IMG/VR virus record: IMGVR_UViG_3300032236_001530
Coordinates: 1-64,000 of that record
DNA: 64,000 nucleotides
Origin: a virus
Direction: 5' to 3' (one strand)
Position 1 is the first letter of the stretch; each line of letters opens with the position of its first letter. The position numbers and the translations under genes were made by a program. Below, piece after piece: positions 14,284 to 55,205 of this stretch. The notes beneath the pieces are model-generated. The model had not been told where the DNA came from, made no database searches, and was given only the letters and a program-made list of their open reading frames with translations.

Positions 14284-15378
14284 ATGCCAACTACAAGATT
14301 ATTCGCATATAATTCAGGGTCACCTATTTCTGGTGCAAGTCAGTCTGGAAACTTAGCTATATCAAACTCTTATATTAGTGGTTATAATTGGTGGGTTGGA
14401 CCAGATGAATCTTTAGGTTATGTAATTGCTCATACTGATACCAACACCGGTGTAAGAACCGAAAGAAATCACGCTGCTGTTATAGGTGTCAATGCTGTTG
14501 GCTTTTGGAGAACAGCAACTCAATCAGATTCAGCTTTTCTAACTATGTTTAATAACATATTCAATCAAAACTATGCTACAGCTTCTACTGCTGCCGACTG
14601 GTTGAATAATAATGGTTATTGGACTTCTTATTCAACATCAAGTACATTAGGAACAATAGGTAATCCAGCTGTAAGTGCTCAAGCTATTTATAATTCAGGA
14701 CAAACAACAAGTGGATGGTATTATATTAAAACTTCTAATATGGCTTCTGCTAGACAGATATATTGTAATATGACTGACCAAGGTGGTGGTTGGATGTTAA
14801 TGACTTATAATCCAAATGCTAGTTTAGGTCTTGGTACTCCTTATCCAAATCAATGGTTGGGTGGTACTGGATCATTCACCGCATCAGTTTCAATTGATGC
14901 TAGACAAGTTTGGTATCATAATGGAACTGCTCAATGTACTCAAGTTATGAAGATGGCTTCAACAGCTACCGCTTCTTTAATACCTTTACTTTCTAATGTT
15001 ATAATTGCTAATAAAGTAGTTTATACCAATCCAAGTAACTTACAATTAACAGCTACCTTCTCATCAGGAAGTGCTGTATTTGCTAATAATACACCTATGT
15101 CTGGTACTTGGTCCGCTATTAAAGGTCATACTCAAATGACTGGTCCACTAAATGTAAATGCTCCTGGTGATTGGGTTTATGCAACAACTGGACAATGGTG
15201 GACCGTCTGTGGACCATCTACGGCTTATCCAGATTCTCAAGGTAGAAGTGGTAATGCTCAAGGTTCTGGTTCTTGGGTAAATAATAATAATGCTAGTATA
15301 TATGGTATGGTTGATGTTGCTACAAGCGGTAACTCACTTAGTGCTACTATTAAAACCTATGCTGTTTTTATTAAATAA
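14284..15378 (+). CDS. Putative virion fibre/adhesin with fibrinogen-like domain
   Basis: SGWYYIK…IYCNMTDQGGGWML; N-terminal domain shared with 25471 ORF. Confidence 0.7.
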   Translation: MPTTRLFAYNSGSPISGASQSGNLAISNSYISGYNWWVGPDESLGYVIAHTDTNTGVRTERNHAAVIGVNAVGFWRTATQSDSAFLTMFNNIFNQNYATASTAADWLNNNGYWTSYSTSSTLGTIGNPAVSAQAIYNSGQTTSGWYYIKTSNMASARQIYCNMTDQGGGWMLMTYNPNASLGLGTPYPNQWLGGTGSFTASVSIDARQVWYHNGTAQCTQVMKMASTATASLIPLLSNVIIANKVVYTNPSNLQLTATFSSGSAVFANNTPMSGTWSAIKGHTQMTGPLNVNAPGDWVYATTGQWWTVCGPSTAYPDSQGRSGNAQGSGSWVNNNNASIYGMVDVATSGNSLSATIKTYAVFIK

Positions 15379-36131: not shown

Positions 36132-36162
36132 AAAAAACCCACTCAAATGAGTGGGTTTTTTT
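36132..36162. terminator. Bidirectional intrinsic terminator
   Basis: aaaaaacccactca-aa-tgagtgggtttttt. Confidence 0.85.
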
Positions 36163-37700
36163 TATTTAATTTGAAACAAATCTTTATATGTAGTGATAGT
36201 TGATTTATCTATTCTAACATTAATATGACTAGGATCTAACTTATCAGTTGTATCAACTCCCATAGCCGCCATAACTTCTTTAACCTCGTGTATAATAGCT
36301 TTGTGATAGTTATAAACACGAACTCTTTTTTCAGCTGGATTAAGACCTTTAACTAAGTGAGGATTTTGAGTAGCAATACCAACAGGACAAGTATTCTTAT
36401 TACATTCTCTTGCTTGAATACAACCTAAACTCAACATAAAAGCTCTAGCAGCATTTACGCAATCCGCACCAATTGATAACAATTTAACGATATCAAAGCT
36501 TGTAGAAGCTTTACCAGAAGCAATAATTTTAACTTGGTCTCTTAAACCATTTAATTTCAATTGTTGATCAATAAAAACTAAAGCATCTACTAATGGTGTA
36601 CCAATACTATTTGTGAAAACAATTGGAGCAGCACCAGTTCCACCTTCACCACCATCAATTGTGATAAAGTCTGGGAAGGTGTTAATTTTTTTCATATGGG
36701 CAATTAACTCAGCTACTTCTTGTTCATCACCTAAGCACATTTTAATACCAATAGGTTTGCCGTTACTTAATTGACGAAGTTTCTTTACGAAACGTAACAT
36801 ACTATCTGGGTTATTAAAAGCGGTATGATAAGGAGGACTCATTACATCAACGCCTGGTTCAACACCGCGAATTTCAGCAATTTCTTTTGTATTCTTTTTA
36901 GCAGGTAAGATACCACCATGACCAGGCTTAGCACCTTGAGATAATTTAATCTCAATCATTTTAACTTGCGGTAACATAGCATTTCTTTTGAAAGCAGCAT
37001 CGTCAAAAACTCTAACACCTTTTTCAGTTTTACCAGCACCAAAATAACCTGTACCTATTTGAAAACAAAGGTCACCACCTTCTTCTTTGTGATAAGGAGA
37101 TAAACCGCCTTCACCTGTGTTTTGATAAAAGTTACCTAATTTAGCACCACCATTGATGGCTTTAACAGCAGCATCAGAAAGAGCACCATAACTCATAGCA
37201 CTTACATTAAATATACTGGCACTATAAGGTCGAGTGCAGAATTTAGAACCGATTGTAACTCGTGGTTCTGTTATTTGTTTAATATCTTTAGGATACATTG
37301 AGTGTTTAACAAACTCATATCCTTTTTCATAAACATCTAATTGAGTACCAAAAGGAGTTGTATTAATATCACCTTTTGCTTTTTGATAAACATCAGAACG
37401 AGCCTCACGATTGTAAGGAGTACCGTTGGTATCATCTTCAATAAAATATTGTTGAATTTTACTTCTTTCATGCTCAAATACCCAACGAAGTCTACCGATT
37501 AAAGGGTAGTTTCTAAGAAGTGAGTGTTGGGTTTGTATAATATCATGTATAACTACCCCAAGACCGATACCGGTCAGGATAGTTATAAACAATGATATTT
37601 CAAAAGAAGTTGTACTTTTTGATAGGAATGTTAATGTGGCAAATAAAGCAGTCAATATAATAAAGATTGCTAAAATCTTACCTCTTGTTAATTTGCTCAT
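36162..37700 (-). CDS. FMN-binding glutamate synthase family protein with N-terminal TM helices
   Basis: SAMSYGALS, NTGEGG, EIKLSQGAKPGHGG, DGGEGGTGAAP, GCIQARECNKNTCPVG. Confidence 0.92.
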   Translation of the reverse strand: MSKLTRGKILAIFIILTALFATLTFLSKSTTSFEISLFITILTGIGLGVVIHDIIQTQHSLLRNYPLIGRLRWVFEHERSKIQQYFIEDDTNGTPYNREARSDVYQKAKGDINTTPFGTQLDVYEKGYEFVKHSMYPKDIKQITEPRVTIGSKFCTRPYSASIFNVSAMSYGALSDAAVKAINGGAKLGNFYQNTGEGGLSPYHKEEGGDLCFQIGTGYFGAGKTEKGVRVFDDAAFKRNAMLPQVKMIEIKLSQGAKPGHGGILPAKKNTKEIAEIRGVEPGVDVMSPPYHTAFNNPDSMLRFVKKLRQLSNGKPIGIKMCLGDEQEVAELIAHMKKINTFPDFITIDGGEGGTGAAPIVFTNSIGTPLVDALVFIDQQLKLNGLRDQVKIIASGKASTSFDIVKLLSIGADCVNAARAFMLSLGCIQARECNKNTCPVGIATQNPHLVKGLNPAEKRVRVYNYHKAIIHEVKEVMAAMGVDTTDKLDPSHINVRIDKSTITTYKDLFQIK

Positions 37701-37750: not shown

Positions 37751-38458
37751 TTATTTCTGGTTAAATTTGAAACCTGTTGCTTTTTCAATATCTTCTTTCT
37801 TAACTTTCCAGTGGTCTAAACCTACTGGTTTATCAGCTGTGTTGTCAAAAATATAATACTCATAAGTTTTTGTTTTCTTAATATAAATAACTTTCCAACA
37901 TTTAGTAGGGATATGTAAACCATCAATTATTGTTGCTGTTCCAAATGAACCACACCAAACATATACTGAATCATATTGTAAAGCTAATTCTCTTGTTCTT
38001 TCTTCTAATTTTTTCCAATCACCTGCATTTAATGAGTGATATTGTGGAGCCATATTAGTAAAATAAAAACACTCAGTTAATACTTTTTGAGCATCAACTT
38101 TTTTACCAGCTACCGTAATCGGACATTCATTATCCGCTGCAGGACACATATGGCCTCTATCAAAACCTTTTAATGATTTAGCTTTTTGTGCTTGGTTAGC
38201 AGCATCATACTCTTTTTGAATATCTGAACTTTTCTCAACAATTGGATCAGGTCCAAATTGGTCTTTTCTTTCTATTTGGTCACAACCACATCTTTCTTTT
38301 GTGTCCCACCATTGAACTAAAAGAGGGTAATCTAATGTAGGACTCCAAAGTGTTGTATAGCCACTATGTTTAATTGTAACCGTGTCTTTTGGAATCTGAG
38401 CCAACGCTTGACCTACCACGAAGAATAATGTGATAAGCGATAATAATAGTTTTTTCAT
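37751..38458 (-). CDS. Secreted DNA/RNA non-specific endonuclease
   Basis: Signal ALA|Q; FDRGHMCPAAD, TNMAPQ, LNAGDWKKLE. Confidence 0.92.
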   Translation of the reverse strand: MKKLLLSLITLFFVVGQALAQIPKDTVTIKHSGYTTLWSPTLDYPLLVQWWDTKERCGCDQIERKDQFGPDPIVEKSSDIQKEYDAANQAQKAKSLKGFDRGHMCPAADNECPITVAGKKVDAQKVLTECFYFTNMAPQYHSLNAGDWKKLEERTRELALQYDSVYVWCGSFGTATIIDGLHIPTKCWKVIYIKKTKTYEYYIFDNTADKPVGLDHWKVKKEDIEKATGFKFNQK

Positions 38459-42153: not shown

Positions 42154-45100
42154 ATGGCTATTAAATACATTATAGATAACTCAGATAACTCATTAGGTAC
42201 TCAAAGTATAAATGGTACCGTTTCCGTTGGCAACTTAACAATAACCGATATACAATCAACCACCGGTCTAACAAACTATGTAGTTGTTGATAGTGATGGT
42301 AATACTTTCTATCAAACAGGTGGTGGAGGTGGAACAAGTAGTCCTATTTTAGGAACATCACACTCTGTTCCTATGTATAACACTAATGGTATTGGATTAA
42401 CAGATAGCGTTGCTTACATTTTCCCAGCTAAATATAATAACACTGCATCAAATGGCTACTCAAATCCTATACCGGATACTTTAATAGTTGGTGGTACTAA
42501 AATTGGCGCTTCAACAAATTATCCACAAACGGTTGGTGTTATTGATAATGGTACAACAGCAAATGGTTTAGCTAGATATCCACAACTTATGGTAATCGCG
42601 GGTACAGCTTACCCTGGTGGTTACACAGCTGGTGTTGCTGCTATTAGTGCTATGGTTATTGATGGTGTTAAAAATAGAAGAGCAACTTTATTTTATAACT
42701 ACAATGATGGAGTTTGGGGCTTATCAGATACAGGGTCTACTGGGGGTGACACATTTGCTTTGTTTCAATCAACAAAAAGAGTGATGTCTGTTTTTAGTAC
42801 AGGTCATGTTAACTTTCAAAATGGTGGTACACATTCAGATTCTGGTAATTTCTTTACCATTGTTGGTACTTCATCTTTCACTGGTGGCAAATTAGAAATA
42901 GGAACAGATTCTGGAATACAACTTTTGGGTTTAACTTCAGGTACTCCTACTTCAACTGGTCAGGCAATTGGTGTTGATGCGTCAGGTAATATTATTACGG
43001 TAGTTGGTGGGGGTGGTAGCACGGGCTCATCTGGATCTAGTGGTTCCTCTGGATCTAGTGGTACATCAGGGTTTAACGGTTCAAGTGGATCTTCCGGATC
43101 TTCTGGTACTTCAGGTAATAGTGGATCTTCGGGTACTTCAGGTAATAGCGGATCTTCTGGTTCCTCAGGCTCATCTGGTTTAAGTGGTTCTTCAGGATCA
43201 TCCGGTGTAAATGGTACATTTATGGGATCTAGTGGTACATCTGGTGTTAGTGGATCATCAGGTTCAAGTGGTATATCAGGTTCTTCTGGATCAAATGGGT
43301 CTTCAGGTACATCTGGTATATCGGGGTCTTCTGGATCAAGCGGATCTTCAGGTTCCTCTGGATCGAGCGGTTCATCTGGTATATCGGGTTCTTCTGGATC
43401 AAATGGGTCTTCAGGTACATCTGGTTTATCCGGTTCTTCTGGGTTAAGTGGATCTTCAGGTTCCTCTGGATCAAGCGGTTCAAGTGGTATTAATGGATCT
43501 AGTGGTTCATCTGGCTTATCAGGATCTAGTGGCTCATCTGGATATAGTGGATCTTCAGGTTCCTCTGGAACAAGTGGTTCTTCTGGGTTATCAGGATCAA
43601 GTGGATCTTCGGGTATTGATGGATCAAGTGGATCATCTGGCTTATCAGGATCTAGTGGCTCTTCAGGTTTATCTGGATCAAGTGGTTCATCTGGCTTATC
43701 TGGATCAAGTGGATCTTCGGGTATTGATGGATCAAGTGGCTCTTCAGGTTTATCTGGATCAAGTGGCTCTTCAGGTTTATCTGGATCAAGTGGATCTTCG
43801 GGTTTATCTGGATCAAGTGGATCTTCGGGTTTATCTGGATCAAGTGGCTCTTCAGGTTTATCTGGATCAAGTGGATCTTCGGGTATTGATGGATCAAGTG
43901 GCTCTTCAGGTTTATCTGGATCAAGTGGATCTTCGGGTTTATCTGGATCAAGTGGATCATCTGGCTTATCAGGATCAAGTGGATCATCTGGTTCATCGGG
44001 ATCAAGTGGTTCAAGTGGTAACTCAGGTTCTTCAGGATCAAGTGGTTCATCTGGCTTATCAGGATCGAGCGGTTCATCTGGATTATCTGGATCGAGCGGT
44101 TCATCAGGTTTATCTGGCTCAAGTGGATCTTCGGGTATTGATGGATCAAGTGGATCTTCAGGTCTATCAGGATCAAGTGGCTCATCCGGATTATCAGGAT
44201 CAAGTGGTTCATCAGGTTTATCAGGATCGAGTGGTTCTTCCGGGTTATCTGGATCAAGTGGTTCCTCTGGGTTTGGTGGATCAAGTGGCTCATCCGGATT
44301 ATCAGGATCAAGTGGCTCATCTGGATTATCAGGATCAAGTGGCTCATCAGGTCTATCAGGATCAAGTGGATCTTCGGGTTTATCAGGATCAAGTGGCTCA
44401 TCTGGGGTTGATGGATCGAGCGGTTCATCGGGTTTATCAGGATCAAGTGGCTCATCAGGTTTATCAGGATCAAGTGGATCATCTGGCTTATCAGGATCAA
44501 GTGGATCATCTGGCTTATCAGGATCAAGCGGCTCATCTGGCTTATCAGGATCAAGTGGATCTTCGGGTTTATCAGGATCAAGTGGCTCTTCAGGAAACTC
44601 TGGTTCCAGTGGATCAAGTGGCACATCTGGATTATCTGGTTCTAGTGGATCATCCGGTACATCGGGTAGTAGTGGCTCAAGTGGTACATCCGGTTCACAT
44701 GGTTCATCTGGATCAAGTGGAACTTCTGGATCAAGTGGCTCATCTGGATCAAGTGGAACATCAGGTGTTAACGGTTATTCAGGAGTTGATGGTACATCTG
44801 GATCTTCAGGATCTTCTGGTAACTCCGGTTCAAGTGGTTCATCAGGTAACTCCGGTTCAAGTGGTTCATCAGGTAATTCTGGATCAAGTGGCTCATCGGG
44901 TAACTCTGGTAGCAGTGGTTCATCAGGATCTTCTGGTAGTTCAGGATTGAGTGGATCTTCTGGTAGTAGTGGAACATCGGGTAAAGATGGTCCATTAAAT
45001 GGTCCTTATTCTAATCCAAATGGTCCGGTTACTGGTGGTTATCTTGGTCAATTATATTTTGGTTCAGATGGTAGTGTTTGGAATTGGAATGGTAGTAGCT

Positions 45101-45654
45101 GGTTATATAGTGGTAACATATCTGGTTCTTCTGGATCAAGTGGTTCATCTGGTGTTAATGGATATGGTTCATCAGGATCTTCGGGTGTCAGTGGATCAAG
45201 TGGGTCATCAGGTGTTTCTGGATCATCAGGATCTTCAGGTGTTAGTGGATCATCAGGTGTTTCTGGATCAAGCGGCTCTTCTGGTGTTAATGGATCAGGA
45301 TCAAGTGGGTCATCTGGTATTAGCGGTTCATCTGGATCAAGTGGTTCATCCGGTGTTAATGGTTCTGGATCAAGTGGATCAAGTGGGTCATCAGGAACTG
45401 ATGGATCAAGTGGTTCATCCGGTGTATCTGGATCAAGTGGTTCATCCGGTGTTAGTGGTGGTGTGACTAATGCAGGTGCTTTAGCCACTGCTTGGGGTCT
45501 ACCAGGTGATTTAAAAAATGGTAATTGCCAACCTCTTGATGGTGATGGTAACCCAATAGGACCCGCGGGTATATGGGTATTTAGATATGATGGTGATCCA
45601 GATGCAACCTATGGTCCTTGTTTTAAACTTAAAATATGTTGTGAATTACCTTAA
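42154..45654 (+). CDS. Gly-X-Y (GSS) repeat protein, putative virion fibre/glycoprotein
   Basis: 1166 aa; beta-rich N-terminal ~285 aa then long (GSS/GLS/GTS/GID) repeats; TAATATATA upstream. Confidence 0.9.
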   Translation: MAIKYIIDNSDNSLGTQSINGTVSVGNLTITDIQSTTGLTNYVVVDSDGNTFYQTGGGGGTSSPILGTSHSVPMYNTNGIGLTDSVAYIFPAKYNNTASNGYSNPIPDTLIVGGTKIGASTNYPQTVGVIDNGTTANGLARYPQLMVIAGTAYPGGYTAGVAAISAMVIDGVKNRRATLFYNYNDGVWGLSDTGSTGGDTFALFQSTKRVMSVFSTGHVNFQNGGTHSDSGNFFTIVGTSSFTGGKLEIGTDSGIQLLGLTSGTPTSTGQAIGVDASGNIITVVGGGGSTGSSGSSGSSGSSGTSGFNGSSGSSGSSGTSGNSGSSGTSGNSGSSGSSGSSGLSGSSGSSGVNGTFMGSSGTSGVSGSSGSSGISGSSGSNGSSGTSGISGSSGSSGSSGSSGSSGSSGISGSSGSNGSSGTSGLSGSSGLSGSSGSSGSSGSSGINGSSGSSGLSGSSGSSGYSGSSGSSGTSGSSGLSGSSGSSGIDGSSGSSGLSGSSGSSGLSGSSGSSGLSGSSGSSGIDGSSGSSGLSGSSGSSGLSGSSGSSGLSGSSGSSGLSGSSGSSGLSGSSGSSGIDGSSGSSGLSGSSGSSGLSGSSGSSGLSGSSGSSGSSGSSGSSGNSGSSGSSGSSGLSGSSGSSGLSGSSGSSGLSGSSGSSGIDGSSGSSGLSGSSGSSGLSGSSGSSGLSGSSGSSGLSGSSGSSGFGGSSGSSGLSGSSGSSGLSGSSGSSGLSGSSGSSGLSGSSGSSGVDGSSGSSGLSGSSGSSGLSGSSGSSGLSGSSGSSGLSGSSGSSGLSGSSGSSGLSGSSGSSGNSGSSGSSGTSGLSGSSGSSGTSGSSGSSGTSGSHGSSGSSGTSGSSGSSGSSGTSGVNGYSGVDGTSGSSGSSGNSGSSGSSGNSGSSGSSGNSGSSGSSGNSGSSGSSGSSGSSGLSGSSGSSGTSGKDGPLNGPYSNPNGPVTGGYLGQLYFGSDGSVWNWNGSSWLYSGNISGSSGSSGSSGVNGYGSSGSSGVSGSSGSSGVSGSSGSSGVSGSSGVSGSSGSSGVNGSGSSGSSGISGSSGSSGSSGVNGSGSSGSSGSSGTDGSSGSSGVSGSSGSSGVSGGVTNAGALATAWGLPGDLKNGNCQPLDGDGNPIGPAGIWVFRYDGDPDATYGPCFKLKICCELP
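43015..45456 (+). repeat. Coding tandem repeat (9/27-nt period) encoding Gly-Ser-Ser triplets, in two blocks
   Basis: ggatcaagt/ggatcttct-type units, interrupted around 44985-45120 by a YFGSDGSVWNWNGSSW segment. Confidence 0.95.
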
Positions 45655-45655
45655 T

Positions 45656-45684
45656 AAAAAACCCACTCATTTGAGTGGGTTTTA
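45656..45684. terminator. Bidirectional intrinsic terminator
   Basis: aaaacccactca-tt-tgagtgggtttt; reverse complement of the hairpin at 36132. Confidence 0.85.
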
Positions 45685-45690
45685 TTTTTG

Positions 45691-45806
45691 TACAAGAGGA
45701 TGGATTCGCACCAACACGATTTAGTTACCTATCAATCAACCTCATTAAAAGGTCACGTCTGCTAATTACATTTCGCTAGCAAAATGTTTATTTCCGCCAC
45801 TCTTGT
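45691..45806 (-). tRNA. Aberrant tRNA-Leu(UAA)-like gene with D-loop hairpin insert
   Basis: Acceptor ACAAGAG/CTCTTGT+A; TGGCGGAA…AGACG D-arm; ACCT-TTTAATG-AGGT; long variable arm; GTTGG-TGCGAAT-CCATC. Confidence 0.65.
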
Positions 45807-46456
45807 TAGTCGTAAAGTTTTATAAAATCTTTACCATATTTTTCTATTACATAATTTAGAAAAGGTTTAATTCTATCTTTATCTATTAGCTCTATTTTAT
45901 TTTTAAATCCTTCCAACTTGGATACTGACTGATCCGTTATATAACCTTTTATCTCAAAAAAAGTATCATCTATTTTGAAATCTGGGTAATATTTATGTTC
46001 TTTTCCTTGGAAAATATATTTAAATGATTCAAAATTTCTTTCAAATTTAATACCATGGTCTATATTATAGATTACCCATGCCAATTCCCAGCTACTATCA
46101 CACCAATATCCTTTATATCTACCTTTCTTACCTCTACCACTACCTTTTCTATAACCACCACCAACTTCTTTCATTTTTTTGGATATCTTATCTCTTCTTG
46201 ATTCTTCGTTGATTTCTTTTCTATCACCTCTATTATATGACTCTTTTATACCTTTTGATAACTTATCAACATAATCATTATACCAATCAAGTCCAAACTT
46301 ATCAATATAATTTATACCTTTATTCCAACCACCTGCTTTCCCTCTTTTAATTTTTCTCCTTGGACCTCTACCATCACAAGAATTAATATGTTTTTCAATG
46401 GATGATTTTATATAAAAGTTACATTTTGGGCAAATATGGTTAATCTCGTTTTTCAT
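45806..46456 (-). CDS. Freestanding PD-(D/E)XK homing-endonuclease-like protein
   Basis: CPKC Zn knuckle, WNKG motif, DSSWELA…YYPDF…EIKG; stop codon abuts the tRNA-like gene. Confidence 0.7.
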   Translation of the reverse strand: MKNEINHICPKCNFYIKSSIEKHINSCDGRGPRRKIKRGKAGGWNKGINYIDKFGLDWYNDYVDKLSKGIKESYNRGDRKEINEESRRDKISKKMKEVGGGYRKGSGRGKKGRYKGYWCDSSWELAWVIYNIDHGIKFERNFESFKYIFQGKEHKYYPDFKIDDTFFEIKGYITDQSVSKLEGFKNKIELIDKDRIKPFLNYVIEKYGKDFIKLYD

Positions 46457-46495
46457 ATAGTATATATAAAAATCAAGACTACCTCTTTATACCAC

Positions 46496-46645
46496 TTATT
46501 CATCCATATCAACATCAGAAACTATATGTTTTCTACAAAATTTAGCCATTTTTGAATTTGGGTAATGATTGTATAAAAACTCAGATACTAAAATAGGAAA
46601 GCCTAATAAAGATAAAGATATCAAAAATATTATTATAATATTCAT
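46496..46645 (-). CDS. Small membrane protein (49 aa), not in ORF track
   Basis: MNIIIIFLISLSLLGFPILV…; start overlaps the upstream stop. Confidence 0.55.
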   Translation of the reverse strand: MNIIIIFLISLSLLGFPILVSEFLYNHYPNSKMAKFCRKHIVSDVDMDE

Positions 46646-46911
46646 TACTTAAAAGTAAATACTTTATATGGTGCTAAAATTGTTACTTTAGAACCATTAG
46701 AATTATAATACCAAATAGAGTCTGAGTTTTGACCATAAATGGTATCTGTTATTGCAATAGCTGGCTTATAGTCAGTATCACTTACTTGATTACCTACATA
46801 AGAGTATTTTCTACTCTCTACCTTAACAAGACCTTCTATTTTATATTTATACTCCTTTTGTTTACAAGAAAAGAGACAAATACTTAAAAGTATAAAAATA
46901 TATTTTTTCAT
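46645..46911 (-). CDS. Lipoprotein
   Basis: MKKYIFILLSICLFS|CK. Confidence 0.8.
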   Translation of the reverse strand: MKKYIFILLSICLFSCKQKEYKYKIEGLVKVESRKYSYVGNQVSDTDYKPAIAITDTIYGQNSDSIWYYNSNGSKVTILAPYKVFTFK

Positions 46912-46912
46912 A

Positions 46913-47272
46913 TTATTTGTTTTTAATTTTTATCATATCGTTTGCAACACGATCAACATTTTTTTGGTCTAAGTAACCCATTTTATTACATATATCCATA
47001 ATAAATTTTTTAGACGGTTTACCATATATAGTACCTAAAATCACGCCTGTCTTTGTGTGCTTTATTAAAGTAACATTTTCATCATTTTCTGAACGACTTG
47101 CAATTATTACAAAGTTACAACAAAATTCATTATCAGATCTCATACTAACAAAATGAGTTGTATCTGATGAGTTTTTATATTTATACTCAATTGTAATAGA
47201 TGGTGTATTTTCGGCTTTGACTAATTGACTCCCAGTCAATATAATCAATAATATTAATGCTAACTTTTTCAT
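46913..47272 (-). CDS. Secreted hypothetical protein
   Basis: Signal peptide …VKA|E; TATATTTG upstream. Confidence 0.75.
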   Translation of the reverse strand: MKKLALILLIILTGSQLVKAENTPSITIEYKYKNSSDTTHFVSMRSDNEFCCNFVIIASRSENDENVTLIKHTKTGVILGTIYGKPSKKFIMDICNKMGYLDQKNVDRVANDMIKIKNK

Positions 47273-47300
47273 AAAACAAATATAATAAAAAAAATTTAAA

Positions 47301-48413
47301 TTAAAAATTATTAACAGAATTAATTATTAAATCTACTTCATCAGTTGTTAAAAAAGGATGAATTGGTAATGAAACAATTCTATCGGCCCATTCATCAGTT
47401 ACCTTACTTGAATACACAATATCCATAGAACTATCAAAGATAGCTGTTTTATGAATTGGAATAGGGTAGTGAATAATTGTTGTGATACCATTAGAAGCCA
47501 TATGTTTTTCAAATGTTTGTCTATCATCAACCATTACACAAAAAATATGATATGAATGTAAAGTACAATCTCCATAAACTTTTGGTAAAGTAACCTTATC
47601 ATTATTCATTTCATTTAGAAATCTTGTAACAATCTCATTCTTAGTCATAGTCCAAGATTTCAAGTGCTTTAACTTCTCAGAAAGAATAATTGCTTGCATT
47701 GAATCTAATCTATGATTGTTACCCAACTCATCATAGTAATACTTAACTTTAGAGCCATAGTTTCTAAGTGATTTTAATCTTGTATTTAACTCTTCTGAAT
47801 TTGTAGTAATAATACCAGCATCACCAGCAGCACCTAAGTTTTTACCGGGATATAAAGAGTAAACAGCCATATCACCATAAGAACCTAAGTGATTACCTTT
47901 ATATCTTGTTTCGTGTGATTGAGAACAATCTTCTAAAATACCAAAGTTGTATTTCTTAGACAAATCTACAATTTTATCCATATCACAAGCTTGTCCATAT
48001 AAGTGAACAGGAATAACAACAACTTTACCATAAACACCTCTCCATTTTTCTAAGAAAGATTCTAAACTATTAACATCAATAGTAAAGTATTCATTTTGGT
48101 CAACTAAAGCCACCTTTGGTTTATCACCTGGTAGATTCTTAACAGCTAAATAATCAGCGATAAATGTGTTAGCCGGTATAATAACTAAGTCATTTGATTT
48201 CAAATCATATGTTTGTAAAGCTAATTTCAGACCGTCTGTACCGTTTGAAACACCAACTGCGTATTTAACTCCAAAGTATTCAGCAAATTGTTGCTCAAAC
48301 TCTGCTACTGATTTTCCATTTATATAAGAGCCTTCGTGTCCTAACTTGTCTATTTTTTCAAGAACCACTTCTCTAATTGTTTGCCATTGTTTTCCTAAAT
48401 CGTTAAATTGCAT
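47301..48413 (-). CDS. DegT/DnrJ/EryC1/StrS sugar aminotransferase
   Basis: VSNGTDGL, PVHLYGQ, EDCSQSH, SLYPGKNLGAAGDAG. Confidence 0.95.
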   Translation of the reverse strand: MQFNDLGKQWQTIREVVLEKIDKLGHEGSYINGKSVAEFEQQFAEYFGVKYAVGVSNGTDGLKLALQTYDLKSNDLVIIPANTFIADYLAVKNLPGDKPKVALVDQNEYFTIDVNSLESFLEKWRGVYGKVVVIPVHLYGQACDMDKIVDLSKKYNFGILEDCSQSHETRYKGNHLGSYGDMAVYSLYPGKNLGAAGDAGIITTNSEELNTRLKSLRNYGSKVKYYYDELGNNHRLDSMQAIILSEKLKHLKSWTMTKNEIVTRFLNEMNNDKVTLPKVYGDCTLHSYHIFCVMVDDRQTFEKHMASNGITTIIHYPIPIHKTAIFDSSMDIVYSSKVTDEWADRIVSLPIHPFLTTDEVDLIINSVNNF

Positions 48414-49221
48414 ATTCTAAATTCATTGTTATTTTTAATGTTATATTCTTATTTTCTATAAAGTTATCTGATGTAAAAAAGTAATCCATAGCTAAATGTA
48501 AAGGTGATTTTGTGTTAGATAAATCCTCTAAACCTTTACCACTTACAATTGTTTTTTTAACATCATCGAATACAATAATCTCATCATCTTCTGTTATAAA
48601 TAAAGCGACTCTGTTTTTAGTTTTATGTTGCCAAGAAGAGTTAATAATAACTTGTAAGCCATCTTTATAATACCAACTAATATTAGATCCAAATTCTTCA
48701 TTTGACTTAATTGAGAATTCATTCCAAGTAAAGTCAAAATTATCTAAACCAAAGATGTAGTAAAGTATTGATAAATCATGTGATGATAAATCAGGTATAG
48801 AACCACAATCATGTCTAACTGGACCATCATTAGTTCTATTAAGAATAACTTGTTTGATTTTCTTTTTAGATACTATTTTTTTAACTCTATCAATACAAGG
48901 ATTAAAAGTATAAACCCAATCAACAAATAACATATTGTTATTTTTATCCATCAGTGAGTAAATATCATTAGCTTCTTTTGATGTTAGTGCTAAAGGTTTC
49001 TCGCACCAAATTCTTTTGTTTTTATATTGACCAATTTTACTTAAAACTTCATGATGTGAAGTGAAAGGCGTTATAACAAAATAGTAGTCATAAGTATCAT
49101 CTAACTCATTAAAGTTATCCAAAACTATATCAATTATTTTAACATCATCATATCCCAATGACATTAAGTTTTTATGGATTATTTTACCCCAATATCCATA
49201 TCCTATTAAGCAAATTCTCAT
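48403..49221 (-). CDS. Gfo/Idh/MocA NAD-dependent oxidoreductase
   Basis: IGYGYWG, WCEKP, DLSSHDL. Confidence 0.9.
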   Translation of the reverse strand: MRICLIGYGYWGKIIHKNLMSLGYDDVKIIDIVLDNFNELDDTYDYYFVITPFTSHHEVLSKIGQYKNKRIWCEKPLALTSKEANDIYSLMDKNNNMLFVDWVYTFNPCIDRVKKIVSKKKIKQVILNRTNDGPVRHDCGSIPDLSSHDLSILYYIFGLDNFDFTWNEFSIKSNEEFGSNISWYYKDGLQVIINSSWQHKTKNRVALFITEDDEIIVFDDVKKTIVSGKGLEDLSNTKSPLHLAMDYFFTSDNFIENKNITLKITMNLEYAI

Positions 49222-49652
49222 ATTTGTCTTGTTATTTTTGCTGGGTTACCATAAGCAACACAATTATCTGGTATGTCTTTAGTAACAACAGAACCAGCAC
49301 CAATTATTACATTATTTCCTATTTTAACAGGTAAAATTGTTGAATTTGAACCAATTCTAACTCTATCACCAACTATTGTTTCCTTCATTTTCCAACTTTC
49401 AATTAAGTCAGAATCGAATATATCATTAGTAAACATCACACCATGTCCAATGAATGTGTTTTTACCTATCTTAACACCTGATGGTATAAATGAATGAGAG
49501 CTAATAATTGAGTATTCACCGACTTCAGCATCTTTTTGTATTTCTACAAATGGTCCAATTTTAACATTATCACCAATAGTACAACCATATAAATTAACTG
49601 GTTCTACAATTGATACATTTTCACCTAAGTTTATATTTTTAATTCCTGCCAT
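49218..49652 (-). CDS. Hexapeptide-repeat sugar N-acyltransferase
   Basis: Left-handed beta-helix repeats; GVMFTND, GAGSVVTKD, GNPAK. Confidence 0.92.
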   Translation of the reverse strand: MAGIKNINLGENVSIVEPVNLYGCTIGDNVKIGPFVEIQKDAEVGEYSIISSHSFIPSGVKIGKNTFIGHGVMFTNDIFDSDLIESWKMKETIVGDRVRIGSNSTILPVKIGNNVIIGAGSVVTKDIPDNCVAYGNPAKITRQI

Positions 49653-49656
49653 ATTT

Positions 49657-50709
49657 TTATTTTATTTTTAAGTGTATTTTTTCTTCATGTATTAAGATGT
49701 TATTCTCATATGCTTTTATTAAAAAACTATAAAAATTATCTTCTGTATTATATGAAGGTGCCATGAAGTAGTTTATATCTTTAGCTAAACTGATAGGTGT
49801 TGCATAAATTAAAAACCCATCATCGCTGTTGTAAATTTCAAACACCAAATTCATATCTCTTTGTACTTTTGTTATCTTAAAAGCGTTATCATATCTTGTA
49901 AAATTCAATGTAAAATCATGACTAAAAACTGATAGCTCTTCGTGTAAACAAGGTATCTCAACACCTCTTCCTTTATGAAAAGCCTCACTAAATTCAAGTT
50001 TATCCTTTTCTTCATTCCAATTATAAGTACACCTTAAATCAACTGGTATACTACCATCATATCCACAATATCTAAACCTTTGATATACTATTTTATCTTT
50101 AGACCTAATATCACTACTTAGCCAAGAATTGTGTTTTATATGAGCTACATTTTTTGGAATCTCTAAACCATTAGCATCACTTAATAAAACACCATTGTTA
50201 TAAGTGAATTGATTATCAAAGTAAAAGGAACTTATACCTCCATTTCTATCAGTTCTTATAATTCTTTCATGAGTGTAATCTTGGAATAGGTTTTCTTCTA
50301 TTGTTAAATTTTTAAAGTTAACAGAATACCAATCATTTTCAGGATTTTTGTTTATGAAGTCTATAATATTTAATATTTGCTCTTTTGTATAACATTCATC
50401 ACCATCCAATACCCATATTAAATCACAATTTTGTTTATTAAGTAAATTCAAACAAAGATTTCTACTCTCATCTTCTCCTAATAGATTTTTACCTTTTGTT
50501 GTTATTAAAAAGTCAATATCATATTCTGATAATATTTTAAGTGTTTCTTGATTTCTAAATGGTATACCTAATTTATAGTAGTCAGAAAACATACCGCTAT
50601 TGGCTGCTATCACAATCTCATTATCTTGCTTTAGTTCAAACCAAGGATCTAAACAATCTTTTATATACTTTTCGCAGTTATAAACCGTGAGTAATACTCC
50701 TATCTTCAT
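49657..50709 (-). CDS. GT-A fold (GT2-like) glycosyltransferase
   Basis: LLTVYNCEKYI…RN…WVLDGDE. Confidence 0.8.
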   Translation of the reverse strand: MKIGVLLTVYNCEKYIKDCLDPWFELKQDNEIVIAANSGMFSDYYKLGIPFRNQETLKILSEYDIDFLITTKGKNLLGEDESRNLCLNLLNKQNCDLIWVLDGDECYTKEQILNIIDFINKNPENDWYSVNFKNLTIEENLFQDYTHERIIRTDRNGGISSFYFDNQFTYNNGVLLSDANGLEIPKNVAHIKHNSWLSSDIRSKDKIVYQRFRYCGYDGSIPVDLRCTYNWNEEKDKLEFSEAFHKGRGVEIPCLHEELSVFSHDFTLNFTRYDNAFKITKVQRDMNLVFEIYNSDDGFLIYATPISLAKDINYFMAPSYNTEDNFYSFLIKAYENNILIHEEKIHLKIK

Positions 50710-50723
50710 ATAAAGTTTTTATT

Positions 50724-51488
50724 TTATTCTTTCCAAAAGTTTACGGTTCTTAAATCACCATTGCCTAAAAAAAGTACAAAGCTTTTGAATCCAAGTCTGT
50801 TCATTCTATTAACAAAATTCTCTTGAAAAGCATCAAAGTGTTCGTTTAGTTTGTGAAACTCACAAGATAAACATCTAAGTGATGACAAGTTTTCATCAGT
50901 AATTGCTGTTAAAACATCAACTTCACCACCTTCTATATCCATCTTCATGAAATCAATTTTATCAGAAAATGTACCAAATAAATCGTTTATACCAACTACA
51001 TAAGCTTTTTCTTGATGTATTACTGGTCTATTATTTACCGCTTCATCTTTTGATGAACCACCACCAATGTGAGTATAATCGGTATGAATTTTAAAATCTA
51101 CCCATTTATTTTGAGCACCTACCGCCATTTTATAAACTAATGTTTTAGGTCCTCTATTCTTAATTAGACAATTAAAGGTTGGAGTTAAAGGTTCGAATGA
51201 TATAACTTTAGAAGCGCCTCTAAATTCAGCTCTATGTGCGAATATACCAATGTTACCACCGATATCTAATACAACATCACCTTCTTTAATAAAACAACCA
51301 TATCTTTCATAATCACAACCATTATCATCATAAACGAAATTAGTAAACATTTCATGCCACATGTAATTGTTTCCATCAAACTCACCAGCGTGATATTTTT
51401 CTAGTGTAAAATTTTTATTTTCTTCTGATAAATCTCTTAGAACTTCATTTCCTTCTTTATCTAAAGTCCATATTTTTTTGTTTCCCAT
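50724..51488 (-). CDS. FkbM-family methyltransferase
   Basis: VLDIGGNIG, SFEP, IDFMKMDIEGGE. Confidence 0.9.
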   Translation of the reverse strand: MGNKKIWTLDKEGNEVLRDLSEENKNFTLEKYHAGEFDGNNYMWHEMFTNFVYDDNGCDYERYGCFIKEGDVVLDIGGNIGIFAHRAEFRGASKVISFEPLTPTFNCLIKNRGPKTLVYKMAVGAQNKWVDFKIHTDYTHIGGGSSKDEAVNNRPVIHQEKAYVVGINDLFGTFSDKIDFMKMDIEGGEVDVLTAITDENLSSLRCLSCEFHKLNEHFDAFQENFVNRMNRLGFKSFVLFLGNGDLRTVNFWKE

Positions 51489-51489
51489 A

Positions 51490-52161
51490 CTATCTTTTTT
51501 TAATTATTATTTTAATGTTTTCACCAACTCTGTGATTACTTATTAAATCCCAATCAGTATTTTCTTTTTGACACCAATGATATATCATAGAACCTTTACC
51601 AACTATATCATATGTGATATCAATTCTTTTAGATTCACCTGTATATTCACCATTTGATAGTTCGCTCCAATTAACCCAGGTTCCTTTAAGGAAGTTATCA
51701 TCAACTATCACTATTGAACCAGATGGCATTTTATCTTTTATAGCTACAAATTCAAGCCAACCATGCAACATGGAAGGAACCGGATTCATTAAATCTAAGT
51801 CACATGAATCTAAATGAACTAAATTTGGAGTACCATTATAACCTTCTAAAAACTTAACCGAGTCTGATACATAATGGTATATTTTTAATCCAGGTATATA
51901 CTTATCAAAAATTTCTTTACTTCTATTTACTATATCTTCGTAGATATCAACAGAGTGGTAAACCCCATATGTTGATTCAGTTATTTTTGCTAAATACAAT
52001 CCAAAACACCCATCTTCTAAATTTTGACTAGCGCCTGTCTCAATACACTCTACTTTATCAAAGTTAAAATGTTCTTTCAAAGCCAAATAAACATCATTTG
52101 ATTGGTTTATTCTTTTATCTGATATTGATTGGTAAAAGTCTAATTCTTTTTTAGTATCCAT
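51490..52161 (-). CDS. Class I SAM-dependent methyltransferase-like protein (start revised to MDTKK)
   Basis: IETG, SVDI, DSVKFL, LVHLDS, IVIVDD. Confidence 0.75.
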   Translation of the reverse strand: MDTKKELDFYQSISDKRINQSNDVYLALKEHFNFDKVECIETGASQNLEDGCFGLYLAKITESTYGVYHSVDIYEDIVNRSKEIFDKYIPGLKIYHYVSDSVKFLEGYNGTPNLVHLDSCDLDLMNPVPSMLHGWLEFVAIKDKMPSGSIVIVDDNFLKGTWVNWSELSNGEYTGESKRIDITYDIVGKGSMIYHWCQKENTDWDLISNHRVGENIKIIIKKR

Positions 52162-54038
52162 TATATCTTGTAAAAGTTTTCTATCTGTTGCATAACAGAT
52201 TCTGGTGTAATTGCTTTTGTACAAATGAATCTTCTTGCTTCATCATTTCTATAGACTGGGCACCATAACCAATCATTCGCATTAAATGGGTATTTATGAA
52301 AACAACCATGGCAAACTGATTCCTCATAGATTCTCAATGTTTTATCATCGATATATTCATTATCTTTTGATGTAGCATTTGAAATAATAACCGTTGGTTT
52401 ACCTAAACCTTGAGCAACCCAAGTCAAACCACTACTCAGACCAATAAACATTTCAGCGTGTTGAAGATAATTTAAAACTTCATTAAAAGGAAGACCTATT
52501 TTTCTAACCGCTTTACTTGGTACTTCATTCATATGACCCGGTATACCAAAAGAAAAATCTTTTTCTACAACAACAGGTGTTAAACCTTTCTTTCTTAACA
52601 TTTTACAAAGTTCATCCCAAGCACCTGGGTGGTTCCAGTATTTACATTGTGCTGTACTATGTACACCAATACAAACATACTTAGCTTTTATTGGTCTTTC
52701 GCCATTTGGTTTGTCTACTTTTAATACCGTGCCTTTATCACTTATATTAAAGTCTTTAGCATAACCTTCTAAAAGAGGAACATCAAATTTATATGTTGTT
52801 AAAATCTTCTCATTATGAGCTATGTTATTAACATACCAAATACCTTCTTCTGGTGTGAATTTAATATTAGCTTCATCCTTTTTATAAATCATTAGGTTAG
52901 GATATGAAGCTCTGAATAGTTCAGGTAATTTACAAATAACTGAAACATCTTTACCTGATTCCTGTCTCCACTTTTCTATAATAGCCATTGCACCAACACT
53001 ATCTCCTAAAGCATTACTTTGAATCTCAACTAATGTTCTTGGTTTAGTTATTTGTCTTTCTACCTTTATAACATCATTTGTTTTACCCCAAACATTTTTT
53101 ATTTCTTCCAGTACTGGAACATAAGATGGGTTACATTCAAAAGATGGTTTCTTTTCTAAACAAGTTGATATTAAAGTAACAGCTTGTATATGACCCCAAT
53201 CTCTTAAAGAGTATTTAAGATCTGATGCGCAGTGTAACTGACAACCACCAACAACATAAGAATATTTATATTGCTGTGAGCTTTTTCTCCAAGGTGCTCT
53301 ATACTCGGATTTAATAGAACTACCTAATTGGATTATATTTACATCTGTTGTACCGGCTAAATGTAATATACCAGAATCCATTGTGATAACACAATTCGAT
53401 TTGTTAATAATGTGCCAAGATTGGTCTAGTGTTGTCTTATTAGTCAAGTCTAAACCATTTTTAATATCTAATTTGAATACTGGTTTTAAAGTTGTTCCAC
53501 TATAATCAGATTCTTCTTTAGCATCTTTACCAATACTAACTACTGGTATACCTAACTCTTCAAGTGATATAATAAGTGCTTGCCAATTATATTTACTCCA
53601 AGTTCTTGAATCCCAAGATTGAGCTGGGTGAATAACAACATATTTTTCTGGTAGCTGAATTCCTGATAAACAAGACTCGTCTGATTGTGGAAAATAATCA
53701 CAATTCATTTCATCTGGGGTTAACATAAACCCTAAATCTTTTGCGTGGAACTGACGAATGTCACACATAGCATGTTTGAATTCGATACCACGAGAATCTG
53801 TTTTACCTAATAAAAAGAATGTTTTATGAAGGTTATATTTTTCAGATAGTTGTTCTTCTGTATATTGATTAAAGTCTAAGCTTTCATCTACATAAGGACA
53901 ATTCTTAAAAAGATAAGGATGATTTGATATAACCGTTATTGGTGATTGAAAAATTTGAGATAGCTTCTTTATTGTTGGTGTTGCTGATATAAGATCACCC
54001 ATAGCACCAGCTGAAGAATAAAATGCTTGTTTTTTCAT
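52161..54038 (-). CDS. Two-module glycosyltransferase: GT9-like plus TibC/Aah-like heptosyltransferase
   Basis: N-half MGD…VVIHP…TMDSGILHLA; C-half LGD…YVCIGVHSTAQCKYWN…IGLSSGLTWVA…VCHGC…WCP…FICTKAITP. Confidence 0.85.
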   Translation of the reverse strand: MKKQAFYSSAGAMGDLISATPTIKKLSQIFQSPITVISNHPYLFKNCPYVDESLDFNQYTEEQLSEKYNLHKTFFLLGKTDSRGIEFKHAMCDIRQFHAKDLGFMLTPDEMNCDYFPQSDESCLSGIQLPEKYVVIHPAQSWDSRTWSKYNWQALIISLEELGIPVVSIGKDAKEESDYSGTTLKPVFKLDIKNGLDLTNKTTLDQSWHIINKSNCVITMDSGILHLAGTTDVNIIQLGSSIKSEYRAPWRKSSQQYKYSYVVGGCQLHCASDLKYSLRDWGHIQAVTLISTCLEKKPSFECNPSYVPVLEEIKNVWGKTNDVIKVERQITKPRTLVEIQSNALGDSVGAMAIIEKWRQESGKDVSVICKLPELFRASYPNLMIYKKDEANIKFTPEEGIWYVNNIAHNEKILTTYKFDVPLLEGYAKDFNISDKGTVLKVDKPNGERPIKAKYVCIGVHSTAQCKYWNHPGAWDELCKMLRKKGLTPVVVEKDFSFGIPGHMNEVPSKAVRKIGLPFNEVLNYLQHAEMFIGLSSGLTWVAQGLGKPTVIISNATSKDNEYIDDKTLRIYEESVCHGCFHKYPFNANDWLWCPVYRNDEARRFICTKAITPESVMQQIENFYKI

Positions 54039-54083: not shown

Positions 54084-54842
54084 TTACAATAAATTAAAAT
54101 TATCTTTGTCTTTTATAAAAGGTAATTGTGTTCTTACCTTGTTTAATTCAAGCTTAGATAGTGTTGTAGTAAAAACATCCTCACTTTGTGAACTTATATA
54201 AAGCGTTTCACCTAAAGCATTTACTAAAGAAGTATCACCGTTATATGATAAATTATTACCGTCTTCACCAATTCTATTAACACCAATTACATAACATTGA
54301 TTCTCAATAGCTCTTGCTACTAATAAACTTCTCCAAGCCAATTTTCTTTTATTTGGCCAGTTAGCCACATAAATTAAAACATCATAATCTTCTACGTTTC
54401 TAGACCAAACAGGAAATCTTAAATCATAACAAATCAGTGGACAGATTTTCCAATCTTTATATTCAATAATTAATTTTGAATTACCTGGTGTATAATGTTC
54501 GTCTTCACCAGCAAATGAGAAAAGATGTCTTTTATCATAATGATGAATAGAACCATCAGGATTGACCCAAATAAATCGGTTGAAGTATTTACCTTCTTCT
54601 TCAATTATAATTGAACCACATATCGCTAAATCTTTCTCAGAGGCATTCTGCTTCATCCATTGAGTAGTTTTGCCGTCCATTTTTTCTGCATGTGGTTTTG
54701 GGTTCATTGTGAATCCAGTAGTAAACATTTCAGGTAAGATAATTAAATCAGATTCTATATTATCAATTTTACTTTGATAATTTTTAAGATTGGAATCTAT
54801 ATCTTCCCAGATTATATTAGTTTGTATTGTTGTTATGTTCAT
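54084..54842 (-). CDS. Nitrilase-family amidohydrolase (YafV/omega-amidase-like; start revised)
   Basis: LPEMFTTGF, YDKRHLF, ICYDLRFP, ARAIENQ. Confidence 0.9.
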   Translation of the reverse strand: MNITTIQTNIIWEDIDSNLKNYQSKIDNIESDLIILPEMFTTGFTMNPKPHAEKMDGKTTQWMKQNASEKDLAICGSIIIEEEGKYFNRFIWVNPDGSIHHYDKRHLFSFAGEDEHYTPGNSKLIIEYKDWKICPLICYDLRFPVWSRNVEDYDVLIYVANWPNKRKLAWRSLLVARAIENQCYVIGVNRIGEDGNNLSYNGDTSLVNALGETLYISSQSEDVFTTTLSKLELNKVRTQLPFIKDKDNFNLL

Positions 54843-55165
54843 TATATAGAAAAGGACTGACCGCAACCACAATTTCTTGAGGCATTGGGATTGTTAAATG
54901 TAAAACCTTTACCGTTAAGACCACCAGAGTAATCTAATTCTGTTCCAAATAAATAAAGAAAGCTTTTTTTATCACAAACAATCTTTACACCTTTGTCTTC
55001 AAATTCTTGATCGCCTTCACTTAATTTATCATCAAATGAAAGATCATAAGATAATCCAGAGCAACCACCACCTTTAACACCAACACGAATGAATGGATTG
55101 ATGAGGTCTTCTTCTTTCATTAATTTAATAGCTTGTTCTTTGGCAGACTCAGTTATAGTTATCAT
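54842..55165 (-). CDS. iscA: IscA/HesB A-type Fe-S carrier
   Basis: GGGCSGLSY, FNNPNASRNCGCGQSF. Confidence 0.93.
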   Translation of the reverse strand: MITITESAKEQAIKLMKEEDLINPFIRVGVKGGGCSGLSYDLSFDDKLSEGDQEFEDKGVKIVCDKKSFLYLFGTELDYSGGLNGKGFTFNNPNASRNCGCGQSFSI

Positions 55166-55179
55166 AATTAGTTATAATA

Positions 55180-55205
55180 AAAAAACCCCAAAAAGATGGG
55201 GTTTA
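55180..55205 (-). terminator. Intrinsic terminator
   Basis: aaacccca-aaaga-tggggttt with A-tract. Confidence 0.7.

Follow-up and report, generated by a model that had tools for sequence, protein, structure and literature searches.

The locus and its gene for a proposed Gly-X-Ser fibre

The window analysed here is the first 64 kb (64,000 nucleotides) of the virus record IMGVR_UViG_3300032236_001530 from IMG/VR, which is 155 kb long (CheckV 83%, linear). Between positions 42154 and 54038 it carries a plus-strand gene for a 1166-aa protein with long Gly-X-Ser repeats, which converges on a minus-strand block encoding a 625-aa glycosyltransferase related to TibC, together with predicted methyltransferases and amino-sugar enzymes. 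An earlier note on this DNA had read the locus as a system by which a phage glycosylates its own Ser-rich virion fibre, and the comparative genomics reported below supports that reading. All open reading frames (ORFs) of the locus were confirmed at their earlier coordinates. Since a protein identical to the 625-aa transferase is also found in a record on a 471,672-base contig, the source phage is probably a huge one.

The fibre-like protein, which is the proposed glycosylation substrate (42154..45654, plus strand), was recognized by its repeat content, by a match to the Collagen hidden Markov model and by an N-terminal domain shared with other proteins. This domain (about residues 1-284), which has homologues in other modular fibre-like proteins, is followed by Gly-X-Ser repeats (residues 285-948 and 991-1104) that are interrupted by a short non-repeat knot (residues 949-990), and then by a Cys-bearing C-terminal domain. 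The description of a Ser-dominated Gly-X-Y protein in the earlier note holds: 771 residues, corresponding to 257 triplets, stand in register in runs of 72, 591, 15, 42, 21 and 30 residues, the longest being 591. Ser occupies the Y position in 230 of the 257 triplets (89%) and the X position in 166, the remainder of X being mostly Leu, Thr, Val, Ile or Asn, and 160 triplets are exactly GSS. X and Y together consist almost exclusively of these six residue types; a single Pro occurs in the 771 residues, and the Pro/hydroxyproline or charge-pair content that would stabilize a collagen-like helix is lacking. The Pfam Collagen family (PF01391) matches with 338 bits, a score that is largely compositional. 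In the DNA, the repeat forms a degenerate array of 46 copies of 27 bases (9 residues) each that match at 78%, and it is therefore not a recent clean expansion; the GC content over the gene is 41-43%, compared with about 29% in the surroundings. A strong terminator-like hairpin with an 11-bp stem and a T tract (45658..45683, plus strand) starts 4 nt past the stop codon. Long ORFs in the other strand and frames of the repeat were rejected as mirror products (PEVP/LVPE-type strings), in which the flanking non-repeat domains with known homologues are missing.

Homologues of the N-terminal 290 residues retain the first ~60 residues and then continue into unrelated distal parts. One relative carries a domain of this type near its C-terminal end, in addition to adenovirus-shaft-like repeats and a head-decoration PHROG domain. 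Because the N-terminal domain is common to modular proteins, and such modularity is typical of phage fibres, we infer that the 1166-aa product is a virion fibre. PHROG "tail fiber" matches to its C-terminal part were not counted, as they are driven by the repeats. The possibility of a packaged "tagged" protein was also rejected, as the N-terminus has no tag of the capsid-targeting type.

A tandem TibC-type glycosyltransferase

The 625-aa protein (52161..54038, minus strand) matches the GT9 family (2.1e-20), and a comparison with TibC bore out the kinship suggested earlier. The best solved match of its C-terminal half is TibC itself (4RAP, sequence E-value 2.7e-29), and the NCBIfam model TIGR04414 (hepto_Aah_TibC) scores 203.8 bits on residues 315-621, a narrow margin over the cut-off of 200, with at most 62 bits for the models of lipopolysaccharide (LPS) heptosyltransferases on the same protein. 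An AlphaFold2 model (predicted local distance difference test score 76.8; low at residues 575-595, part of the iron finger) was used for a Foldseek search, in which the top matches were all 4RAP or 4RB4 (E-value 6e-19, TM 0.64 on the target), with the LPS heptosyltransferases WaaC and RfaF much weaker. By profile, sequence and predicted fold, the C module is a true relative of TibC and Aah (the BAHT family).

The earlier note spoke of a fusion of a GT9 and a TibC-like part retaining four Cys residues. The TibC-like part stands, and its CHGC, WCP and FICT motifs do align with TibC, but the protein comprises two TibC-type modules with four Cys each, all invariant in an alignment of 16 homologues that reaches down to 46% identity. 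The two halves match each other in hhalign with 97% probability (E-value 2.7e-11, 274 columns), with the GD and Cys motifs in register; thus, from these alignments, the enzyme is a tandem duplication of a TibC-type GT9 module. The N-type module, delineated by hhalign, Cys pattern and GD motif, spans residues 1-322 (53073..54038, minus strand), and the C-type module, delineated by TIGR04414, 4RAP and Foldseek, spans residues 330-625 and the stop codon (52161..53051, minus strand). The N-terminal beta-barrel of TibC (PF21129, TibC_1st) found no match in the 625-aa protein, where the second glycosyltransferase module stands instead.

In the C module, C576, C579, C593 and C606 correspond to the iron-finger residues C339, C342, C358 and C370 of TibC, and iron binding is predicted. 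T462, K466 and W540 correspond to T226, K230 and W305, of which the first two contact the beta-phosphate in TibC and the third contacts the sugar (PMC4358343). These three residues, the four iron-finger Cys and the GD-motif Asp are kept in 63-65 of 65 phage C modules, the four Cys in 63 and the Asp (D346) in 64; D346 lies where the profile coordinates place Asp-110, the catalytic base of TibC, the residue-level alignment beginning only at TibC 199. The equivalent of TibC P300 is Ser, as in Aah. The N module has its own GD motif (D15) and conserved Cys residues (C266, C270, C293 and C302), and its donor pocket differs from that of the C module in having Arg145 in place of the Lys (K230) and His226 in place of the Trp (W305).

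Spread and architecture of TibC-like modules

Relatives in viral contigs were found only with the 16-homologue alignment, a search with the single protein having returned nothing. At least 329 proteins in the collection belong to the fusion family, nearly all of them metagenomic. Among species-representative genomes, the full-length fusion occurs only on a 27-kb contig of a metagenome-assembled genome (MAG) of Saprospirales (45% identity), and an archaeal MAG has an N-module-only match on a contig of 6 kb; six further matches are distant (27-34% identity) and come from Selenomonadaceae and one Acidobacteriaceae MAG. These genomes give no sign that the fusion belongs to a cellular lineage. The C module is present in four of 50,697 deposited phage genomes, namely Microcystis phage Mel-JY01 and three huge-phage assemblies; the four records represent three distinct phages. 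In viral contigs, the modules occur alone (~295 aa), in the N+C fusion, behind an unrelated N-terminal region of some 400-500 aa, or as part of larger proteins (1200-1500 aa). Where an N-type module occurs, the same locus nearly always has a C-type module too, and only short or cut contigs and one locus deviate from this; the reverse is not true.

Co-occurrence of Gly-X-Ser repeats and TibC-like genes

Among the ORFs scanned in the window there is no autotransporter-type match; the recurrent neighbour of TibC-like genes is a Gly-X-Ser repeat gene. We scanned IMG/VR for seven consecutive GGN-WSN-WSN triplets and took an arbitrary 80 loci among the matches listed, which gave 72 distinct searchable records; all counts for this forward sample refer to the matches listed. 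As a control, we scanned for ten Gly-X-Y triplets of any kind, which yielded 69 records with mostly Pro-, charge- or Thr-type collagen repeats. TIGR04414 matched in 22 of the 72 G-[ST]-[ST] records (20 over the cut-off) and in none of the 69 control records (Fisher p = 8e-8), a contrast that is seen in all size classes, including records of at least 100 kb (9/13 vs 0/7). Of the forward records that are at least 90% complete, six of nine carry a TibC-like gene. The association across phages on which the earlier note had staked its reading was thus found.

The converse search agrees with this result. The repeat is present in 19 of 43 records fetched via the transferase and in five of the seven of those that are at least 90% complete, and a single phage fragment, 16-24% complete and seen repeatedly, accounts for eight of the negatives. 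When the TibC-like modules are grouped into 25 clusters of less than 60% mutual identity, 21 clusters hold at least one record with the repeat. The two genes also lie close together: less than 10 kb separates the repeat from the TibC-like gene in 14 of the 22 double-positive forward records, and in those of at least 60 kb this is the case in 10 of 14, compared with 2.3 expected (P = 4e-6). Several repeat genes run into contig ends, hence linkage is under-counted. More generally, Gly-X-Ser genes are very often found at the extreme ends of viral contigs; the repeats break assemblies, so that any census of such genes is biased downward. In addition, the pattern of seven perfect triplets misses short tracts (two such TibC loci are known), and genomes scored as GSS-negative may not be truly negative.

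Within a clade defined by relatives of the tail sheath of one TibC-bearing locus (36 records), a TibC-like gene lies immediately beside the tail-sheath gene in 27 records, and the GSS repeat is present in 12 of these 27 and in none of the nine TibC-negative records (p = 0.016). Such a sheath-adjoining gene in an aquatic myophage clade represents a near-core position for a glycosyltransferase. Terminase_6N and Phage_sheath_1, considered as neutral markers, are both absent from the 155-kb record. The reversed G-[ST]-[ST] DNA pattern had no match in the 43 + 36 records, and chance is far from sufficient to explain the GSS tract. Ser makes up a mean fraction of 0.73 of the Y positions in TibC-positive records and Thr 0.04, and the searchable records of G-X-Thr type loci, which are few, show no TibC-like match. 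The acceptor residue of TibC is Ser and not Thr (PMC4358343), and the Ser-filled Y position agrees with this specificity. In phages, TibC-like genes and Ser-rich, Pro-free Gly-X-Y genes show a strong and specific link, in that they occur in the same records and close to each other.

The pair is also found in a cultured phage. In Microcystis phage Mel-JY01 (PP395634.1), nt 2-2401 of the plus strand are one open G-[ST]-[ST] frame of at least 800 aa with Cys-rich knots, which probably runs on over the ends of the record and which ends ~2.4 kb upstream of the TibC-like gene, with two Ser-rich, non-collagen fibre-like genes in between. The minus-strand "hypothetical proteins" WWT39286 and WWT39287 (PEVP/LVPE strings) annotated in region 1-2401 of this record are a mirror reading of the repeat ORF. 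The 1226-aa "methyltransferase FkbM" of Mel-JY01 consists of a GT4 domain at the start, a weak TibC_1st barrel and a GT9/TibC module. As this phage can be grown, the hypothesis of fibre glycosylation is directly testable. TibC-like modules are also present in the largest published huge-phage genomes: in LR756501.1 (735 kb), short G-[ST]-[ST] tracts lie at a distance of 5-6 kb, and LR756504.1 has no such tract within 20 kb.

The minus-strand block and its surroundings

From 54038 down to 46645 the genes of the minus-strand block overlap or nearly abut, and no terminator-like site occurs among them, which suggests one operon. Directly after the transferase lies a putative class I S-adenosylmethionine methyltransferase (51490..52161; ~223 aa from the likely Met22 start of a 244-aa ORF, which overlaps the transferase stop by 1 nt). 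It matches phrog_24975, has no PDB relative, and its assignment is a lead from language-model features of the ESM Atlas (0.97 to Methyltransf_24 clusters); its homologues adjoin TibC-like genes in five other loci. The following gene (50724..51488) encodes an FkbM-family methyltransferase (TIGR01444, 71 bits vs the cut-off of 37.7), homologues of which lie within 10 kb of a TibC-like gene in 28 of 45 viral loci. The product of 49657..50709 is a weak match to GT2 glycosyltransferases (PF00535, 29.1 bits vs 23.3), without a PDB relative and with homologues at five of the 45 loci. Then come a left-handed beta-helix (hexapeptide) enzyme, a predicted N-acetyltransferase of amino sugars (49218..49652), a Gfo/Idh/MocA oxidoreductase (48403..49221; 37.9 bits vs 24), which is a candidate nucleotide-sugar 3-dehydrogenase, and a DegT-family pyridoxal-phosphate aminotransferase (47301..48413; PF01041, 3.6e-84), of C-3 type by its nearest solved relatives. 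Two small ORFs of 119 and 88 aa without a family match (46645..47272) form the tail, their membership in the operon being uncertain. The enzyme set listed in the earlier note is therefore confirmed by profiles for the DegT, Gfo/Idh/MocA, hexapeptide, GT2-like and FkbM proteins, with the second methyltransferase as a lead only.

The same note had assigned the aminotransferase, dehydrogenase and acetyltransferase to the synthesis of a 3-acetamido nucleotide sugar. For two of the three this is well founded, because their relatives make or acetylate 3-amino sugars: the nearest solved relatives of the aminotransferase, of the C-3 type, are 7N63, 7B0D, QdtB (3FRK), 5U1Z, DesV (2OGA) and WbpE (3NU7), and those of the acetyltransferase are the WxcM-like/FdtD protein 4MZU, QdtC (3FS8) and WlbB (3MQG), which acetylate 3-amino sugars. 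The dehydrogenase step is weakly supported, with weak PDB matches and a score of 56.7 bits (2.8e-15) against NF040723 (UDP-GlcNAc 3-dehydrogenase), far under the cut-off of 450. No 3,4-ketoisomerase was seen at the locus. The NCBIfam equivalog scores of the aminotransferase and the acetyltransferase are all under their cut-offs, and the exact sugar is thus unassigned. As judged from these homologies, the trio probably makes a 3-acetamido-3-deoxy nucleotide sugar.

An HNH-like endonuclease gene (45806-46456, minus strand; PHROG endonuclease families) separates the fibre gene from the sugar operon and is possibly a mobile insertion. The gene immediately upstream of the transferase encodes a YafV-type carbon-nitrogen amidohydrolase (54084-54872, minus strand; NF007757, 287.8 bits vs 249). 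It shares the window with a glutamate-synthase-domain protein (36162-37700, minus strand; PF01645, 3.3e-91), and both are nitrogen-metabolism genes that are unusual in a phage. A bidirectional terminator-like hairpin at 55183-55204 is probably the upstream limit of a minus-strand operon that comprises the amidohydrolase and the glycosylation genes. Elsewhere in the window are genes for a protein with a fibrinogen C-terminal-like domain (14284-15378, plus strand; 2.4e-06), a non-specific DNA/RNA endonuclease (37751-38458, minus strand; 5.6e-32) and a cohesin domain protein (62302-63999, plus strand; 4.2e-08). The cluster found no match among deposited phages by Megablast.

Proposed function and alternative explanations

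From the gene content, homology, conserved residues and genomic linkage described above, we consider it fairly probable that the phage O-glycosylates Ser residues of its own Gly-X-Ser virion fibre by means of the tandem TibC-type enzyme. The phage would build a long fibre with a proline-free shaft on the virion surface, and the Ser residues of the shaft, most likely those in the Y position, would receive their sugars in the cytoplasm of the host, either ahead of assembly or in its course. Attachment of the first sugar to Ser would fall to the C module; the N module, a diverged duplicate with another donor pocket, would either add a second sugar or act as the back-to-back partner, as in TibC. 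The trio would probably supply a 3-acetamido-3-deoxy nucleotide sugar, to be added by the GT2-like enzyme or by the N module, and O-methylation of the sugars would be the task of the FkbM protein and the second methyltransferase-like protein. The glycan could take the stabilizing part that hydroxyproline or glycosylated Thr plays in other collagens, here for a triple helix devoid of Pro, or it could serve in shielding or adhesion.

Several observations weigh against this proposal. The case is one of comparative genomics, no glycan having been observed on any such fibre, and the virion location of the fibre is itself a deduction, the PHROG "tail fiber" matches of its repeat region being compositional. 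The natural acceptor of TibC is a beta-helix loop and not a Gly-X-Y helix. Fifty of the 72 GSS records among the matches listed show no TibC-like gene, although most are fragments and GSS genes often end contigs, and two of the seven complete TibC-bearing genomes show no GSS tract. The forward and control samples differ in habitat and phage type, so that clade may explain part of their contrast, and in one clade the TibC-like gene is near-universal beside the sheath gene (27/36). Homologues of the DegT, Gfo/Idh/MocA and acetyltransferase proteins occur at 0, 0 and 2 of the 45 TibC loci, and the trio as a set at none. Finally, Arg-286, which is essential in TibC, is replaced by Val521 in the C module; most of the 65 phage modules have M, T, V or I at this position, and 16 have R, nine of these being from one phage.

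The last point bears on the donor. In TibC, Arg-286 contacts N1 of adenine, which explains the specificity for ADP (PMC4358343). Neither GmhA nor RfaE domain I was found in the 155-kb record, and a GmhA-like gene is present in only three of 45 TibC-bearing phage records. With this Arg lost and no heptose pathway genes in the record, the donor of the phage enzyme may be other than ADP-heptose, or the host could supply the heptose sugar; heptosylation, as described for TibC and Aah in the earlier note, is not established here.

Glycosyltransferase clusters in large aquatic myophages are customarily thought to remodel host surface glycans, and a study of pelagimyophages takes such transferases as modifiers of the host O-chain (PMC7029224). 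Applied to this locus, the transferases and sugar genes would alter LPS, capsule or S-layer glycan, for example to block superinfection, and their proximity to the fibre gene would reflect a shared hypervariable host-recognition region. The classical role of GT9 enzymes as LPS heptosyltransferases and the resemblance of the trio, which is not kept with TibC-like genes, to WbpB/WbpE/WbpD-like sets typical of O-antigen pathways fit this picture. We nevertheless regard it as improbable: the C module scores in the protein-modifying BAHT branch and far lower with the LPS models, the enzyme matches include no lipid-carrier, flippase or polymerase family, and a generic effect of the fibre region fails on the total lack of TibC-like genes in the 69 other collagen-like records, which presumably represent fibre genes too. 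A further explanation that divides the locus between two unrelated cargoes, with the TibC-type enzyme and the methyltransferases acting on the fibre and the DegT, Gfo/Idh/MocA, acetyltransferase and GT2-like proteins serving a host glycan or another phage glycoconjugate, is a serious minority possibility. It would account for the near absence of the trio from TibC loci at which FkbM homologues are common (28 of 45), and since the trio is not kept beside TibC-like genes elsewhere, its link with the fibre relies on adjacency in this phage alone. Yet the genes overlap or nearly abut on one strand as in a single operon, and glycan decoration is expected to vary between phages.

It is also conceivable, if quite improbable, that the TibC-type enzyme modifies other phage proteins, such as the capsid, a decoration protein or non-collagen Ser/Thr-rich fibres, and leaves the Gly-X-Ser tract alone. 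Some complete TibC-bearing genomes are without the GSS pattern (their negative status being uncertain, since the pattern misses short tracts), Ser-rich non-collagen fibre proteins stand between the two genes in Mel-JY01, and one clade has the TibC-like gene next to that for the sheath; virion glycosylation of the capsid and tail tube has been reported for mycobacteriophages. "Virion glycosylation" is also mentioned in PMC11256854. A specific, two-way and positional link with Gly-X-Ser genes is, however, hard to explain in this manner. The self-glycosylated fibre proposed above could be extended into a general claim, by which large aquatic phages would widely make proline-free, triple-helical Gly-X-Ser fibres with nearly every Y-position Ser sugared by BAHT-type enzymes from the world of bacterial adhesins, the glycan replacing hydroxyproline as stabilizer of the helix, most of the enzymes using donors other than ADP-heptose after losing the Arg that reads ADP, and the tandem enzyme acting as a covalent back-to-back dimer that threads the fibre. 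Taken as a whole, this claim is speculative and rather unlikely.

Implications and comparison with known systems

A full-text literature search returned no work in which phage glycosylation is connected with TibC-type enzymes, heptosyltransferases or collagen-like repeats. If fibre glycosylation is true, two well-defined cases of virion glycosylation in phages would be joined by a third, from phages that are very abundant in fresh and marine waters, and the BAHT family, known only for modifiers of virulence adhesins, would gain another natural role, probably larger than the first. A collagen-like helix without proline would have an explanation, a simple enzyme/substrate pair, (Gly-X-Ser)n and one transferase, would become available for densely glycosylated rods, and the finding would bear on how phage fibres withstand proteases, adhere to surfaces or are recognized. 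Database annotations should also be corrected: Gly-X-Ser genes are frequently assigned to the wrong strand, and the transferases carry labels such as "autotransporter heptosyltransferase" or "FkbM methyltransferase".

Among known glycoproteins, BclA of the Bacillus anthracis exosporium is a Pro-poor, Gly-X-Thr collagen-like filament that is densely O-glycosylated on its hydroxy residue with a rhamnose/anthrose glycan, and this glycan carries an amino, acylated and O-methylated sugar made by an aminotransferase/acyltransferase/methyltransferase set. BclA differs from the phage fibre in belonging to a spore and not to a virion, in having Thr instead of Ser, and in being served by other transferase families without a BAHT enzyme. 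Mimivirus has glycosylated fibrils, collagen-like proteins, transferases and a virus-encoded amino-sugar pathway (aminotransferase and N-acetyltransferase); it is, however, a giant virus of eukaryotes with other enzymes and sugars, in which the collagen-like genes have not been shown to be the acceptor. In mycobacteriophages, phage glycosyltransferases of GT2/GT-A types modify C-terminal extensions of capsid and tail-tube proteins in the cytoplasm, and the phage's own structural proteins are thus O-glycosylated, as proposed here, but there is no collagen-like substrate and no BAHT enzyme. The amino-sugar trio resembles the WbpB/WbpE/WbpD, WlbA/B/C and QdtB/QdtC routes in the nearest solved relatives of its aminotransferase and acetyltransferase, with the Gfo/Idh/MocA gene between them, and departs from them in its weak dehydrogenase match and in having neither a uronic-acid step nor a ketoisomerase.

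The closest parallel is provided by the TibC-TibA and Aah-AIDA-I systems of E. coli (4RAP, 4RB4; PMC4358343). As judged from the sequences, what is particular to the phage locus is the tandem two-module enzyme, the loss of the Arg that reads ADP, and the attached 3-acetamido-sugar and methylation set. In contrast to the E. coli systems, the phage locus has no autotransporter and no ADP-heptose genes in its record, the proposed acceptor is a Gly-X-Y repeat instead of a beta-helix loop, and the beta-barrel is replaced by a duplicated transferase module. On the other hand, the enzymes belong together by profile, sequence and predicted fold and share the Cys residues and the equivalents of T226, K230 and W305, with the GD-motif Asp as the candidate counterpart of the catalytic base. 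The substrates are alike in being repetitive, elongated and, as we propose for the fibre, hyper-modified, and the Ser acceptor of TibC fits the prevalence of Ser in the Y position. Each TibC substrate is handled by a pair of enzyme molecules; the phage enzyme carries its two predicted modules in one chain.

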